Source of the DNA: Escherichia phage flopper | Strand: one strand, 5' to 3' | DNA length: 52,092 bases | Sequence record: NC_048845.1 | Part shown: one piece after another, positions 11,260-50,042 of the stretch | Position numbering within the stretch: position 1 is the first letter of the stretch | Layout of the letters: the number at the start of each line of letters is the position of its first letter | The notes under the pieces: model-generated | What the model was told of the DNA's origin: nothing | The model's input: only the letters and a program-made list of their open reading frames with translations | Database searches by the model: none | Translations under genes and position numbers: made by a program

Positions 11260-12360
11260 TTAAAGCTCAAATCCACCCAGAGCATTGGTGTCCACTTCGG
11301 AATCAATCTGCCCAACAAGGTACGAACTAATCTCCGTTTCTTGTGGAGCAACCTGTACAGCATCCGAATTCAACCATGCGTTAATCCAAGGAATCGGGTT
11401 AGTAGCACCTTTGAATGGAGCATCCAATCCAACTGCTTGCATACGAATATTTGTGATATATTCCACATATCCGCACAGAATTTGCTTGTTTAAGCCAATC
11501 ATTGAGCCATCTTTGAACAAATAATCAGCCCAATCTTTCTCTTGTTGGGCCACATTTTCGAACATTAGTTGGCATTCTTGGCGACATTCTTTAGCAATTT
11601 CGGCCATTTCTGGGTCATCAACACCACTTGCAAGAAGGTTCAGCATGTGTTGAGTTCCGGTCAAATGGAGTGCTTCATCACGAGCAATTAGGCGAATAAT
11701 CTTGGCATTTCCTTCCATTAACTTGCGTTCAGCGAAGGCAAATGAGCAAGCAAAACTGACGTAAAAGCGAATTGCTTCCAGCGCATTAATGGACATGAGG
11801 CATAAATACAGCTTCTTCTTAAGCTCACGAAGAGAAACTTTATCTTCATGCAGATGCCACATGGAAGTTAGATGTTGAAGCTCGTCATAATATTGGGAGA
11901 TGCCGATTGCACGCATTTTAATGTGCTCATTCTCCACAATTTCATCGAAAATTACACTTGGGTCTGTCACGATATTACGGATAATATGCGTGTAAGAGCG
12001 AGAGTGAATTGTCTCTGAGAATGACCAAGTTTCAATCCAAGTTTCCAGTTCAGGAATGCTCACAATTGGTAGCAAAACTGTAGTTGGTCCACGTCCCTGA
12101 ATGGAATCAAGGAGGATTTGATAGCGCAAGTTGCTTGTGAAGATGTGCTTCTCGCATTCAGGCAGACCAGCATAGTCAATTCGGTCCTGACTAACATCAA
12201 CCTCTTCAGGTCGCCAAAAGAATGATAACTGCTTCTCAATTAACTTCTCGAAGATGCTATACTTCTGTTGGTCGTATCGAGCAACGTTAACGTTCTGACC
12301 AAAGAACATTGGTTCTAATAGTTGGTTATTCTTGGTTTGTGAAAAGGTAGTGTAAGCCAT
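11260..12360 (-). CDS. nrdB: ribonucleotide reductase class Ia small subunit (R2)
   Basis: 366 aa closely resembling enterobacterial NrdB along its length (by recollection; identity not computed); ATG overlaps the upstream stop as TAATG. Confidence 0.9.
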
Positions 12361-12914
12361 TACAGATTTCCTAGATACTCATAGAATTTATGGCCACCAT
12401 AACGTCCCAAACCTTTAACATTCTTGAAGTTGCACTTCTCTGATGCTGTACAAAAGTGGGTTGCTTTGGTGACAGAGGGTTGATTAAATAATACAAAAGA
12501 GATTGCAACATTAATGGTGTCCAGAACTTGTTGTTGTTCTGTGGCATAATTAATCTTTGCTACATGCTTCCATTGAGCATTCTTCTTCTTTGCTTCTCGT
12601 GTCCATGCAAATTGATTGCGTTGATAGACAACATCACAAACGGTGTTAGCGAATGGCTTCCCGAACTCTGTTCTATTACGGACGACATTAGCTACCAGAA
12701 TCTTTCCATGTTTGTCTTCTCCGCGAGCTTCATACCAGATAACTTTAGTATAGCATTCTAGCTCTTTTCGTTGTGAAGAAGATAGTTTCAGACTTCCATT
12801 TAAATAAGAATGACTTGCAAAATCTGTAATAGCAGAATTCACTGCCCCAACCGAAGCTGGGGCGTTGATGTGAACTAAAGCTGTCAGAACTGCAAGGACT
12901 TTGAATGATAGCAT
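12360..12914 (-). CDS. SleB/CwlJ-family cell-wall hydrolase with N-terminal signal sequence (probable endolysin)
   Basis: YEARGE...G...VANVVRNR...QFAW hydrolase_2-like motifs; hydrophobic N-terminus [24 protein letters not shown]; directly downstream of the holin. Confidence 0.7.
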
Positions 12915-12931
12915 TCGAGTTCCTTATCATT

Positions 12932-13273
12932 TCATCGTGCCTTCTTGAACCACGTCAAAGGATTAAGTTGTTTGATTGCGCCAGAGAAACTTTCCCTGAC
13001 AGTTGTGATAATGAGGTTTGCACCGATGACACCAATCACAATAGCCAGAACTAGCTGCATAGTGACGTTAGTCGTGAAGGTTTCAAATGTGCCAGCAACA
13101 TGAAAGGCAAACAAGCCGATTAAGCTGCACAGCGCCGCATCCAGCAGCGCCTTGCTCAAGCCTTCACTTTCATATGCCCCACGGATTAAGGCCGTCAGAC
13201 CGGCCAATAGCCCGTGCCATACGCCGTATTGGTGCATCAGGTCCACAAACATCTGAATGGATAAGCGTTCCAT
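12932..13273 (-). CDS. class I holin (lambda S-like)
   Basis: 113 aa from the internal ATG at 13273 with AAGGA RBS; IRGAYESEGLSKALLDAALCSLI parallels lambda S [23 protein letters not shown]; several TM segments. The longer ORF to 13381 would overlap the fibre gene. Confidence 0.65.
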   Translation of the reverse strand: MERLSIQMFVDLMHQYGVWHGLLAGLTALIRGAYESEGLSKALLDAALCSLIGLFAFHVAGTFETFTTNVTMQLVLAIVIGVIGANLIITTVRESFSGAIKQLNPLTWFKKAR

Positions 13274-13280
13274 GATTTCC

Positions 13281-46886: not shown

Positions 46887-47117
46887 TTATTTTAATGACG
46901 CCTGAATTTCTTTCATCGACGCATTTAGTACAGAACGCTTTTCATATTCGCGTTGATTGTACGTGTTTGTCAGTGCTTCCGCAGCTTCTATTGACAAGAT
47001 TGCAAAACCACCAAAGGCATTGCGAACTTCTTCAATATCCATGTGCAGGACTTCACTGGTAATTTGGCTGGCTATTACGGCCTTATAAATCTCTTCGGCA
47101 ATTTCAGCAGTTTTCAT
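46887..47117 (-). CDS. hypothetical protein
   Basis: 76-aa ORF. Confidence 0.4.
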   Translation of the reverse strand: MKTAEIAEEIYKAVIASQITSEVLHMDIEEVRNAFGGFAILSIEAAEALTNTYNQREYEKRSVLNASMKEIQASLK

Positions 47118-47374
47118 GTTTCTCTCCAGTTAAAAATTTAAGTAAGTGTCCTGACGTGGACTATTACGAACATTACAAAACATTGGCTTAAATGATGTTT
47201 CCACTGCGGCCAAGACACTTATTAAATTTGATTCGAACCGCCCAAGTGAATCAGCCTTGTTTATGGGGACCATCGGGGAAAAGTATAAACCCGCTTAATG
47301 CTCGCATCATGTTTGAACATTAAGAACCCTCGACTTGCATATTTCATGTGTATAGGAACATAGTCTGGATTTTG

Positions 47375-47393
47375 AATCCAACTAACTTCGGGA
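47375..47393 (-). promoter_or_regulatory. degenerate copy of the conserved motif
   Basis: gAATCCAACTAActtcggg. Confidence 0.25.
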
Positions 47394-47962
47394 TGAGGAG
47401 TAACCCAAACGAAAGCCTGAACTTTCTTTCTGCACAACACAATCAGCGCAACTAAGCCGTATCGCTACGGTATGCCAGACGCTCTCTTGAGCCTTTTGAA
47501 CAGAGGCATAACTGTTGGAGGAAATTGGCGGGCACGTGACTGACACTTTGCACATCATGGAAGACGTTTTGCAACACATCTTCTAGTGACTGACATTTGC
47601 ACTAGCCCATTGTTCGGGGGATTCACTGGAATCGAACCAGTCAGGTCGTTTCACCACGGTCAAGCCCGTACATACGAAAATCCCATTGAATTTGGTGGCC
47701 GATACGTTGGCCAGACGCTGTGGCCTTTACGCGGCCAACGTGCCATTAATGCTGGCAAGACAGAGCTAACGTTCTCAAGCACTTTGTCTAGGTATGTTCC
47801 CGGCCACTGTTCTAGGAAGTGACTACCTGAACTTTCTCGCGTTCAATACGAGGCAGCAATTTTAATTGTTATGCCCAGAGCAATTGCAGGAGTTACACCT
47901 GCCATACCACAAGTGGCTAGAGTCTCGTTATTTAAAGTCGCGCACTCCCTCGACTTGTTCAC

Positions 47963-48172
47963 TCACTGTCGGGTAAGTTGAGAACACTTTTGTGCCCACG
48001 TTTCATTGTGGACTAAAATCTGTGTTTTGGTTTCGCGTGATAAGATTTTCACTTCTGCAACATTCAAATAAATTGGTTGTGCAATCAAGCAGTAATCACT
48101 TACGAACCCACTTTGAGAGCAACTCACTATCGACATTGCTATCAGAACTGCTAGACACTTCTTTCTGAACAT
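47963..48172 (-). CDS. putative o-spanin (outer-membrane lipoprotein, Rz1-like)
   Basis: 69 aa; signal plus lipobox-like MFRKKCLAVLIAMSIVSC; starts inside the 3' end of the upstream TM-protein gene in another frame. Confidence 0.45.
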   Translation of the reverse strand: MFRKKCLAVLIAMSIVSCSQSGFVSDYCLIAQPIYLNVAEVKILSRETKTQILVHNETWAQKCSQLTRQ

Positions 48173-48332
48173 GCGATTTAATCTCGATAGATTCTTTTAA
48201 TGAATCTAGTTGCTTCTCTGTGGCTTCCTGACGCTCCTCGGCTTTGCCTGAGCTTTTGCCTTTGAGGAACACTGCAATAAGAATACCAAATGCAGTCAGG
48301 ACGCCAAGAATTACTGATTTAAGCTGTTGCAT
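48096..48332 (-). CDS. putative i-spanin (Rz-like), short
   Basis: 78 aa with N-terminal TM helix (VILGVLTAFGILIAVFL) then charged helical domain; AAGGTG RBS. Confidence 0.45.
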   Translation of the reverse strand: MQQLKSVILGVLTAFGILIAVFLKGKSSGKAEERQEATEKQLDSLKESIEIKSHVQKEVSSSSDSNVDSELLSKWVRK

Positions 48333-48340
48333 AAATCACC

Positions 48341-48481
48341 TTAGATGGCACACGCACCGCTTGAGCAGTCATTATCGCCAGCACCAGGAACGATTGCTTC
48401 TTCGTCCTGCTTCTTCTTGAGTTCTTCAATTGCTTCTTCGGCAGCACCGAAGTCCAAATTGTCTAGTGCATCAATGTCCAT
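48341..48481 (-). CDS. 45-aa peptide with RNR large-subunit-like C-terminal CxxxxC tail
   Basis: MDIDALDNLDFGAAEEAIEELKKKQDEEAIVPGAGDNDCSSGACAI; GGAG RBS 5 nt upstream; the tail DCSSGACAI resembles the E. coli NrdA C-terminus CESGACKI; stop lies 8 nt before the i-spanin ATG. Confidence 0.4.
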   Translation of the reverse strand: MDIDALDNLDFGAAEEAIEELKKKQDEEAIVPGAGDNDCSSGACAI

Positions 48482-48509
48482 GAGGACTCCATGTTATTGT
48501 TGAAAGTGG

Positions 48510-48602
48510 GTGGACGAGGTTGGATTCGAACCAACGACACATCTGTCGAACAGATTGCTCTACCTGACTAAGCTCTGGAGCAGACCTTCTGAGCTACTCG
48601 TC
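48510..48602 (-). tRNA. tRNA-like element (canonical acceptor stem and T-arm; internal arms non-canonical)
   Basis: Minus strand: GGACGAG / CTCGTCC 7-bp acceptor, U8-A9, GCUC D-stem start, T-arm GTTGG-TTCGAAT-CCAAC; ~93 nt. One fold gives a class II tRNA with anticodon loop GUCAGGU (CAG, Leu); another gives a 5-nt loop hairpin. Confidence 0.4.
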
Positions 48603-49038
48603 CAAATTGGGTGGGTTTTGATAACGCAGGTTTTCCCGAACTGCGAGGCTTGTAGAATCTGTGAGCCGCCTACTGTGTTTTGACATAACGTGGGATTGAT
48701 GGTCCCGACTCACTTCATCTCAGGTACGAGGCACTACTTTGCGAGTGCAAGCAGGTGTTGAACCCAAGTACCAACAGGCAACCTAACTTATCCCACCTTT
48801 GTGGGCATCATTGGTTTGAGCAGTTTATTTCCATGCTCAGGGCAACTCACTTTAGGGTGAATTAGGTTACGCAGTGCAGCTTCGAAGTCGCTGCCACAGG
48901 CTTGAGATTCCTGTGTGGAGGGAAATCCAGAGGAGCACTTCCTCAAGGAGTTACGTTTCAAATTGGCATAGCTTCTCACACTAAACCAATTGAAGACATT
49001 CCAGTGTGCTCGTCCGTCCTCTAGAAATATCCAACTGC

Positions 49039-49234
49039 ATAATTAAGTTTGTACTCTGGTAGGAGATGCCACATAATATTTTAGGCTCCGCGCTCTCCAA
49101 CACTACCAATCATGAGTGCACCAATCTTGGCGAACAACACCAGAATACAAATTAATAATTAAGTTTGTACTCTGTCACATCCCCACGCGCACTGGAGGAC
49201 TTAAGCCTGCATTGCATCGCAGAATACAAATTAA
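49039..49234. repeat. direct repeats in non-coding region (aattaagtttgtactctg x2; agaatacaaattaat x2)
   Basis: Copies at 49039-49058 / 49154-49173 and 49141-49155 / 49219-49234. Confidence 0.5.
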
Positions 49235-49703
49235 TTATTGCTCCGATTTATTAATCACATCTCGAAGCCACAATGCGCCAAATTTGGTTACGTGGGATTG
49301 GAAGACCACGGAGAGGACTTAAATTTAATTAAGCCGCAACTCGCATTTCAGAATCATTTGCATTTATTTTAAATGAATAAAACAGTCGCAATAACTTCGG
49401 GCAGTTTAGGCCCGTCGTAAGACTCAGAAAACTACTTCAATTTGTACACAACAAATTTCCCAACATTGCCTTCCGTCGAAGGCTCATGCACTGGTGTTTG
49501 AATTATGCACAAATTGAAATAACTTCAATGAACACTCTCGTCTGGGCCATGAGCTTGGGCATCGGCCTTCCTCCCAACTCTAATCACAAGAATGCTCATT
49601 GAAGCCCACTCTTCCTTTCAGAGTGGGTTCAAGGCAGCACCGGAAAACTTCCAGTGCACGCCAGATCGATTTAGCTTAGTCTCTCAAGTTTGCCATCGGC
49701 AAC

Positions 49704-50042
49704 TTAGAATACCGGAGCTTCTTCAACAGCAGCTTCGGCAGCTTCGGCAACACTTGCGTCAGCAACTTTAGCTTCTTTCGGAGTATCGAACTTAGTACGC
49801 TCAACTTCCGGCTCGCCAGCTTCAACCCACGGCAGGTAGAATGCCAGGAACTGCTCGATGGTGTTCTTCTGCATGGAGCGAGAACGGTCGATAGCACCAA
49901 CGGTGTTCAGGTACGCTTCGGCAGCTTTCTCAATTTTAGCACCGTTTTCCAGTTTGAAGTCATGTGCATTACATTCTGCTTCGGTCAGGAACAGGGAACC
50001 ATCGTTAGCTTCGTACTGAGTTACGGTTACAATCTTAGCCAT
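49704..50042 (-). CDS. hypothetical early protein with acidic C-terminus
   Basis: 112 aa; AAGG RBS; C-terminal EAKVADASVAEAAEAAVEEAPVF. Confidence 0.5.
   Translation of the reverse strand: MAKIVTVTQYEANDGSLFLTEAECNAHDFKLENGAKIEKAAEAYLNTVGAIDRSRSMQKNTIEQFLAFYLPWVEAGEPEVERTKFDTPKEAKVADASVAEAAEAAVEEAPVF

Follow-up and report, generated by a model that had tools for sequence, protein, structure and literature searches.

What use might a phage that encodes the small subunit of class Ia ribonucleotide reductase, and no large subunit, have for the last residues of the subunit it lacks? This question is raised by a short gene of Escherichia phage flopper (NC_048845.1; the whole stretch of 52,092 nucleotides is hereafter the window), a phiEcoM-GJ1-like phage of the genus Carltongylesvirus, family Chaseviridae. 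The gene lies on the minus strand at 48341..48481 (stop codon 48341-48343), is preceded by a GGAG ribosome-binding site that can be read from the sequence at 48487..48490 (minus strand, 5 nt before the ATG), and encodes MDIDALDNLDFGAAEEAIEELKKKQDEEAIVPGAGDNDCSSGACAI, i.e., 46 amino acids plus the stop. The first-pass annotation of the window had located this open reading frame (ORF) and its ribosome-binding site correctly, while counting one residue too few (45), and had suggested that the peptide may be what remains of a lost nrdA 3′ end or may act as a mimic, interacting with host redoxins (thioredoxin, glutaredoxin) or with the host large subunit (R1, NrdA). Herein we present evidence that the peptide, which we refer to as the tail module, is a free-standing homolog of the NrdA C-terminal redox tail as judged from sequence, and we discuss whether it may act in trans as a dithiol relay between redoxins and host NrdA.

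Conservation and selection of the tail-module gene

The tail-module gene is genuine, and purifying selection acts on it strongly from end to end. Segments 47000-50000 and 47950-48820 of the window match 44 GenBank records at 91-97% DNA identity, and the ORF is intact in all of the GenBank relatives that hold the flanking DNA (44/44), with 95.7-100% identity at the amino acid level. Many of these records annotate it as a hypothetical protein and the GJ1 record leaves it without annotation; in phage Mangalitsa (gp36), a ribosome-binding site is annotated at the place equivalent to the GGAG described above. Among 16 aligned sequences, 18 codons showed synonymous variation only and two carried non-synonymous changes (I3F and A34E), the stop codon being either TAA or TGA. 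In terms of nucleotide changes, 21 were synonymous versus three non-synonymous, where 79% would be expected to be non-synonymous at random (binomial P = 4e-12). One record is unusual in its stated host: Staphylococcus phage Pel53 (PP952070.1, L015), attributed to Staphylococcus hyicus, is ~92% identical to these coliphages across the region and carries the same peptide, the same spanins and an nrdB like that of E. coli; the attribution seems questionable.

Match to the C-terminal tail of NrdA

In E. coli NrdA, the cysteines C754 and C759 carry electrons from thioredoxin or glutaredoxin to the active site. The protein terminates in ...DDLVPSIQDDGCESGACKI (also given as ...RDGAEDAQDDLVPSIQDDGCESGACKI), which the first-pass annotation had given correctly. 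BLASTP of the peptide against E. coli NrdA aligned residues 27-46 to residues 742-761, terminus to terminus, with 9/20 identities (E = 9e-5), and the aligned NrdA segment includes both shuttle cysteines. The end-anchored score was reached by none of 200,000 shuffles, also when only the last 20 residues were shuffled, and the parallel drawn in the first-pass annotation is thus better than shuffled controls. The 96 distinct C-terminal tails that we collected from gammaproteobacterial NrdA fragments have the consensus DD[DG]C[AE][GS]GACK[IL]-end, and a position-specific scoring matrix made from 66 distinct NrdA 12-mers gave the end of the peptide +28.0 bits (z = 9.3), with the runner-up among 2338 stop-terminated segments (six frames, whole genome) at -3.4 bits.

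Untargeted searches did not reveal this match, which is explained by the fact that short tail matches escape such tools. The tail scored E = 1.1 in a tblastn search of NrdA against the whole genome, level with a random match elsewhere; phmmer against PDB sequences returned nothing, even for a member of the wider family (see below) whose last eight residues equal those of NrdA; and a word-indexed search of 5.8 billion proteins with the peptide retrieved near-identical phage copies only. The peptide displays the flexible acidic C-terminal tail with a cysteine pair at its extreme end that is a feature of NrdA, while the catalytic ten-stranded alpha/beta barrel (Pfam Ribonuc_red_lgC) is absent from this 46-residue protein, which has no Pfam match. 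A class Ib tail was also considered as the source and rejected, E. coli NrdE ending in GCVSCAL, which is less family-like than the class Ia tails.

A family of free-standing modules

Erwinia phage Y2, which belongs to another chasevirid genus, has at the same place an unannotated ORF that encodes M(RL)MDGLDNIDFDEIERRNDEKLDAQEVIEDESDCDGCKI. This ORF (L018 4138-4260, corresponding to NC_019504.1 16137-16259, where RefSeq has no annotation) overlaps the start of the Rz-like spanin gene gp40 by 32 nt, and its product is aligned to the flopper peptide by BLASTP with E = 6e-4. The small hypothetical proteins that tblastn retrieved with the Y2 peptide as query come from other chaseviruses of Erwinia and Pantoea, from Yersinia phage P778 (90 kb) and from jumbo phages of Serratia, Pectobacterium, Erwinia and Yersinia. 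The members from Y2, P778, 2050HW and Kwan match PHROG 10239 end to end (E = 3e-6 to 2e-4), as do members in which the module is fused to other sequence. This 47-position profile is listed as of unknown function, and it differs from the family described here in having neither a functional annotation nor a link to NrdA. In Pfam, no match was found for the peptide or for the Y2, P778, 2050HW and Kwan members.

Six members, the flopper peptide included, were combined in a profile that was searched against 1.84 billion representative proteins, and further members were added by word-indexed search. At E ≤ 0.001 the profile retrieved 39 clusters (50% identity clusters), and all matches end at the protein C-terminus; cluster P0001, which is 98% identical to the flopper peptide and thus to a sequence already in the profile, was retrieved at E = 4e-9. 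A profile search of PDB with the family alignment gave chance-level matches only. Members are mostly 37-98 amino acids long and share one order of elements, namely hydrophobic-[LF]-[DE]-x-[IVLT]-D-F-[DE], ~15 mostly acidic residues, an acidic run and C-x(2-4)-C-K-I-end. The flopper peptide has the same architecture of motif, helix, acidic tail and C-x(2-4)-C-[KA]-[IL]-end. Both cysteines are invariant in 61/61 family members. The spacing of the cysteines (n = 56: Cx2C 40, Cx3C 3, Cx4C 13) varies as it does among genuine reductase tails, which is unlike a metal site, where the spacing would be kept fixed. Five terminal 8-mers of the family are identical to real NrdA tails (CESGACKI, CEGGACKI, CESGACAI, CAGGGCKI and CEGGACKL), and the closest outside member to the flopper peptide is P0169 (LDALDNFDFD...CESGACAI).

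A few members of 123-360 amino acids (P0165, P0166, P0172, P0174 and P0175) carry the module at their end. For the N-terminal parts of these proteins, the only matches are to PHROGs without a known function, and the domains fused to the module yielded no informative Pfam or PHROG annotation. We found no published description of the tail-module family in a literature coverage that did not extend to all journals.

Homology to phage-type NrdA

The NrdA of Erwinia jumbo phage Kaldavass ends in ...YYMNTNDGSGEVDLDKLEGEKKEKGIVVLLPPMEAEDDCDSCKI. Residues 2-37 of the Y2 peptide align to the last 38 residues of this protein with 15 identities (E = 5e-6), the alignment beginning at the ...NT.DG end of the barrel, and the family profile matches the Kaldavass tail over 35 columns to the terminus (hhalign probability 87.5%, E = 3.6e-6). 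Against enterobacterial NrdA, hhalign aligns the last 13 columns of the family only (P = 1e-3). A degenerate DNA pattern that encodes DC[DE]GCKI followed by a stop codon, scanned over IMG/VR, returned 28 free-standing modules, 13 full-length or partial NrdA frames with exactly this tail, nine Phage_gp49_66 (PF13876) proteins with the same tail and four other unclassified frames. The DC[DE]GCKI ending of the 13 phage NrdA frames is also the ending of most modules. Taken together, the whole-module homology to the end of NrdA and the results of the scan identify the module as a copy of the tail that follows the barrel in a phage-type NrdA, detached from the rest of the protein. The tail of the peptide is the NrdA C-terminal redox tail by homology and not by mere resemblance, the module likely originated from an nrdA 3′ end, and the acidic DC[DE]GCKI tail seems to be portable between proteins.

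The Phage_gp49_66 proteins that carry the tail (L048, L062, L108, L111, L117, L122, L127, L128 and L138) are about 115-125 amino acids long, and the domain has two conserved cysteines. The scan also encountered a 134-amino-acid frame ending in ...FTYLDCEGCKI at 56 IMG/VR loci (e.g., L038, L041-L046), many of them on ~40-kb contigs. This basic, Ser/Arg-rich ORF was rejected as a family member, being non-acidic and unlike the family, and is probably one common element that matches the pattern by chance.

Anatomy of the peptide

Family alignments place an N-terminal motif, DALDNLDF, at residues 4-11 of the flopper peptide (48449..48472, minus strand). BLASTP aligns the region of this motif to the Y2 orthologue, and DALDNLDF corresponds to EVDLDKLE in the Kaldavass NrdA tail. 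AlphaFold2, run on a 42-sequence family alignment, predicted helices at residues 3-7 and 11-28 with a predicted local distance difference test score (pLDDT) of 70-83, the second of these being an acidic helix (48398..48451, minus strand). Residues 29-46 (48344..48397, minus strand) were modelled as low-confidence coil (pLDDT about 52-55) and form a putatively disordered acidic tail that ends in DNDCSSGACAI, with Cys39 encoded at 48365-48367 and Cys44 at 48350-48352 (both minus strand). The peptide is thus predicted to be one helix bearing a flexible tail. It has no membrane segment, signal peptide or lipobox, is highly acidic and contains no hydrophobic stretch, and the lack of a signal peptide or membrane segment points to a cytoplasmic location. 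Mimicry by DALDNLDF of either the SSB tip or DDLSNFQL, the octapeptide at the C-terminus of NrdB, was set aside as speculation only, since other family members keep neither the Asn nor the spacing.

Reductase and redoxin genes

The nrdB gene of the window (11260..12360, minus strand) encodes a class Ia reductase small subunit with 80% identity to E. coli NrdB. It retains the radical and iron-site residues W48, D84, E115, H118, Y122, E204, D237, E238, H241 and Y356, has a 10-residue internal deletion relative to the E. coli protein, and its NrdA-binding C-terminal tail is changed from DTDDLSNFQL; judging by the retained residues, the phage NrdB is apparently functional. In any frame of this genome, we found no NrdA, thioredoxin, glutaredoxin or NrdH, and in the tblastn search with E. 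coli NrdA the 20-residue tail was the only NrdA-related part. The description of the genome as having nrdB and no nrdA was therefore right, although the grounds given for it, that no ORF is large enough for nrdA, were not: ORFs of 646, 681, 644 and 1241 amino acids exist, none of which is NrdA. The 646-amino-acid ORF near nrdB was considered as a hidden nrdA and is a T7-like RNA polymerase.

The same absence of nrdA is found in two further lineages. The Y2 genome has no reductase, thioredoxin or glutaredoxin gene, and P778 has class III NrdD/NrdG only, without nrdA or nrdB. Flopper, Y2 and P778, three independent lineages, therefore have no nrdA of their own whose severed end the module could be, and any NrdA that it serves in these phages must be that of the host. 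Nor is a phage nrdB needed by the family, because Y2 and P778 do without it. Within Chaseviridae, nrdB is confined to Carltongylesvirus, and its next-best phage NrdB matches come from unrelated phages (≤77% identity). This distribution indicates that the module, as far as Chaseviridae are concerned, either was present before nrdB was acquired or has a history independent of it.

The module lies among genes of nucleotide metabolism or replication, which speaks for the explanation favoured below: ThyX in flopper, thymidylate synthase and MazG in phage Kwan, and dCMP deaminase, thymidine kinase and helicases in other contigs. No reductase gene stands beside the module at any locus examined. Nor do genes for modification, processing or export, as expected near a ribosomally synthesized modified peptide or a bacteriocin precursor, adjoin it in flopper, where a tRNA-like element and the spanins flank it, or in the family loci examined. 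In four related jumbo-phage contigs of 260-271 kb, the immediate neighbour of the module is a glutaredoxin gene (PF00462; 40-49% identity to E. coli Grx1), with a gap of 2 nt in one of them; the joint loci are L134 6997-7391, L102 2246-2647, L055 2246-2647 (minus strand) and L126 557-1419.

Proposed function and competing explanations

Two properties of R1 tails, in addition to the shuttle role of C754/C759, bear on what a free tail could do: Grx1 accepts a detached R1 C-terminal peptide as substrate, and in yeast the R1 tail can serve the adjacent monomer in trans. The explanation we favour, with a probability of about 0.5, is that the peptide is a free-standing class Ia NrdA redox tail acting as a trans dithiol relay between redoxins and host NrdA. 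In such a relay the two cysteines would cycle between dithiol and disulfide. The oxidised peptide would be reduced by host thioredoxin or glutaredoxin, like the native NrdA tail, and the reduced peptide, acting in trans, would hand its electrons to the C225/C462 disulfide in the active site of host NrdA. The N-terminal motif and the helix may hold the module on its partner, in which case the tail would be at high local concentration, and turnover of the host alpha subunit, presumably paired with the phage NrdB, would be supported during the burst of deoxynucleoside triphosphate demand. The relay is a form of the mimic suggested in the first-pass annotation, an interaction with host redoxins or host R1 that the evidence favours and that we infer rather than demonstrate.

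Several observations weigh against a relay. The sequence is compatible with support as well as with inhibition of the reductase, and the native tail is tethered to NrdA and thus at high effective concentration, so that the benefit of an extra free tail is not obvious. The penultimate residue, a near-invariant Lys in NrdA tails, is Ala in the clade of flopper; tails ending in ACAI also occur in one NrdA (P0123) and in one other family member (P0169). The flopper peptide itself has no match to PHROG 10239 at E ≤ 1, and its membership of the family rests on synteny, on the BLASTP match to Y2 and on the six-member profile described above. Adjacency to glutaredoxin is found in one jumbo-phage lineage and hence probably reflects one or two independent events. 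The tail is also carried by unrelated domains (Phage_gp49_66 and others), which means that its target need not be NrdA. Finally, the sole expression data that we found, for the phiR1-37 member g117, consist of near-zero RNA-seq values.

The strongest competitor is a decoy or regulator: the module would compete with the native tail for the NrdA site or docking surface, or for thioredoxin or glutaredoxin, and thereby throttle or redirect the reductase or the thiol flux. The same sequence features would serve it as well as they serve a relay, and there is precedent in eukaryotes. Yeast Sml1 competes with the R1 tail and interferes with tail-dependent regeneration. Like Sml1 and its counterparts Spd1, Dif1 and Hug1, the module is small and largely disordered and is proposed to act on the tail-driven regeneration of the R1 active site; it differs in that it shares no sequence similarity with Sml1 and in that Sml1 is a competitor of the tail, whereas the module is a tail. 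The Neurospora UN-24 PA incompatibility domain, a piece of 135 amino acids, is reported to form a non-reducible complex with yeast Rnr1, an example of the harm that a free R1 C-terminal domain can do in trans. It resembles the module as a free R1 C-terminal piece acting in trans on a foreign R1, and differs in being eukaryotic and toxic and in that it is a piece of a natural allele, studied by expressing it, and makes up no gene family of its own. Carriers without any reductase, such as Y2, could moreover gain from stopping host DNA synthesis if they scavenge host DNA. We nevertheless consider a decoy unlikely and prefer the relay for three reasons. The phage NrdB, apparently functional, depends on host NrdA and works with nothing else, so that blocking NrdA would be self-defeating; a trap has no need for both cysteines, one being enough, yet both are invariant; and in the jumbo phages the module stands beside a glutaredoxin encoded by the phage itself, an arrangement more in keeping with cooperation than with sequestration.

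Alternatively, the tail could be a portable tag that recruits a redoxin, or reducing power, to a non-reductase target bound by the N-terminal motif and helix. The nine Phage_gp49_66 proteins and several proteins of 123-360 amino acids with unknown domains that end in the acidic DC[DE]GCKI speak for such a tag, as does the absence of an adjoining reductase gene at every locus examined. NrdA is, however, the only family known to carry this tail natively, the match covers the whole post-barrel segment of NrdA and extends beyond the cysteine pair, and no data indicate an alternative target, so that we regard a non-reductase target as rather improbable.

Genome context and the spanin genes

The position of the gene invites a third alternative, a lysis accessory that works with the spanins, for example in handling disulfides of the spanin complex. 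Directly downstream of the tail-module gene lies an i-spanin of 78 amino acids with a transmembrane segment (48096..48332, minus strand), whose ORF is overlapped by that of the o-spanin, a 69-amino-acid lipoprotein with the lipobox SIVSC (47963..48172, minus strand). The first-pass annotation had noted both the spanin-like pair and the gap of 8 nt between the TAA of the module and the next ATG, which is that of the i-spanin, and both downstream ORFs carry an Rz-like spanin annotation in relatives. The order of module, i-spanin and o-spanin is common to three chasevirid lineages (flopper, Erwinia phage Y2 and contig L028), although the spacing of module and i-spanin is not, being 8 nt in flopper, a 32-nt overlap in Y2 and 13 nt in L028. 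Such an arrangement favours a role in lysis, which we nonetheless judge very improbable: the peptide would be cytoplasmic, whereas spanin disulfides form in the periplasm; the synteny with spanins is confined to Chaseviridae, outside which the module is not near lysis genes; and the holin and endolysin are 35 kb away beside nrdB.

The lysis cassette of the window is in fact split. Directly upstream of nrdB (region 12360-13280) lie a SleB-type endolysin that bears a signal (12360..12914) and a holin-like ORF, and the i- and o-spanin genes stand 35 kb from them, behind the tail-module gene. In GJ1 and ST32, holin, endolysin and nrdB are the final three genes of the genome, with the spanins and the peptide gene in the early/middle region. 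Beyond the spanins, flopper has ThyX and replication genes.

Scanning for promoters and terminators around the tail-module gene, we found nothing on the minus strand. Directly upstream of the gene there is a tRNA-like element (48510-48605, minus strand) with an extra segment of ~24 nt in its 5′ half. It scores 27.9 bits with the Rfam tRNA model, slightly below the gathering threshold of 29 bits, and ARAGORN reports no tRNA in the whole genome. The GJ1 record labels the element “tRNA-Arg, may contain an intron”, and the ARAGORN calls for the corresponding element in relatives are discordant (Leu-cag, Ser-gct, undetermined or none). Sub-threshold Rfam tmRNA matches at 49274-49523 (minus strand; 17.8 and 20.3 bits versus gathering thresholds of 50 and 47) are most likely due to chance.

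Origin and comparison with known systems

Least credible of all is the view that the gene is a functionless remnant of a lost nrdA 3′ end, or that a peptide with an unrelated role (e.g., metal binding) resembles NrdA by chance, for although the tail is almost certainly derived from an nrdA 3′ end and its match is invisible to untargeted searches, the whole ORF is under purifying selection, at least 39 clusters at 50% identity all match at the C-terminus, the cysteine spacing varies unlike that of a metal site, and the peptide is an extreme outlier in the scoring matrix. The relic proposed in the first-pass annotation thus survives as the likely origin of the module and fails as a description of its present state, given the selection, the ribosome-binding site and start codon of its own, the free-standing family and the presence of the module in Y2, which lacks a reductase.

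The nearest known counterpart is the NrdA redox tail itself (E. coli NrdA residues ~737-761), with which the module shares the acidic disordered segment, the cysteine pair, the K/A position and the I/L end. It differs in lacking the catalytic barrel, in having its own 46-residue gene in a genome without nrdA and in its penultimate Ala. Reductases that are made in pieces offer a second comparison. The NrdA of Aeromonas phage Aeh1 is reportedly split by a homing endonuclease gene, and in the class II enzymes NrdJa/NrdJb the cysteine-rich C-terminal part is a separate polypeptide. In these cases, as in ours, the electron-delivering C-terminal part of the large subunit is made separately; there, however, both halves are encoded in one genome, while the catalytic half is absent from flopper, Y2 and P778, and the module is a disordered tail only, with no folded domain.

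Implications

Among the steps of ribonucleotide reduction, the one in which the C-terminal tail re-reduces the active site has received too little study. Should the module act as proposed, the 46-residue peptide would be a tool to probe, or possibly to inhibit, the relay between tail, redoxin and active site in enterobacteria; were it a decoy, regulation of the Sml1 type would have its first counterpart in a virus of bacteria. We tentatively suggest a broader principle, which we hold as possible rather than probable: phages without the catalytic subunit may encode its detachable parts. In flopper, the barrel of host NrdA would then depend wholly on accessories made by the phage, namely NrdB as the generator of the radical and a trans electron-delivery tail that docks by its N-terminal motif, with the tail recharged by host redoxins (or by phage redoxins in the jumbo phages). 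In general, phages would place the acidic ...DC-x(2-4)-CKI end on small proteins and on other domains as a portable tag for relay from redoxin to reductase. If the relay holds true, a natural and widespread free tail would mean that viruses supply the re-reduction step in trans. It would also give a testable function to PHROG 10239 and its relatives in chaseviruses, Felix-O1-sized phages and several jumbo-phage groups, and would help to explain why some phages carry nrdB only.

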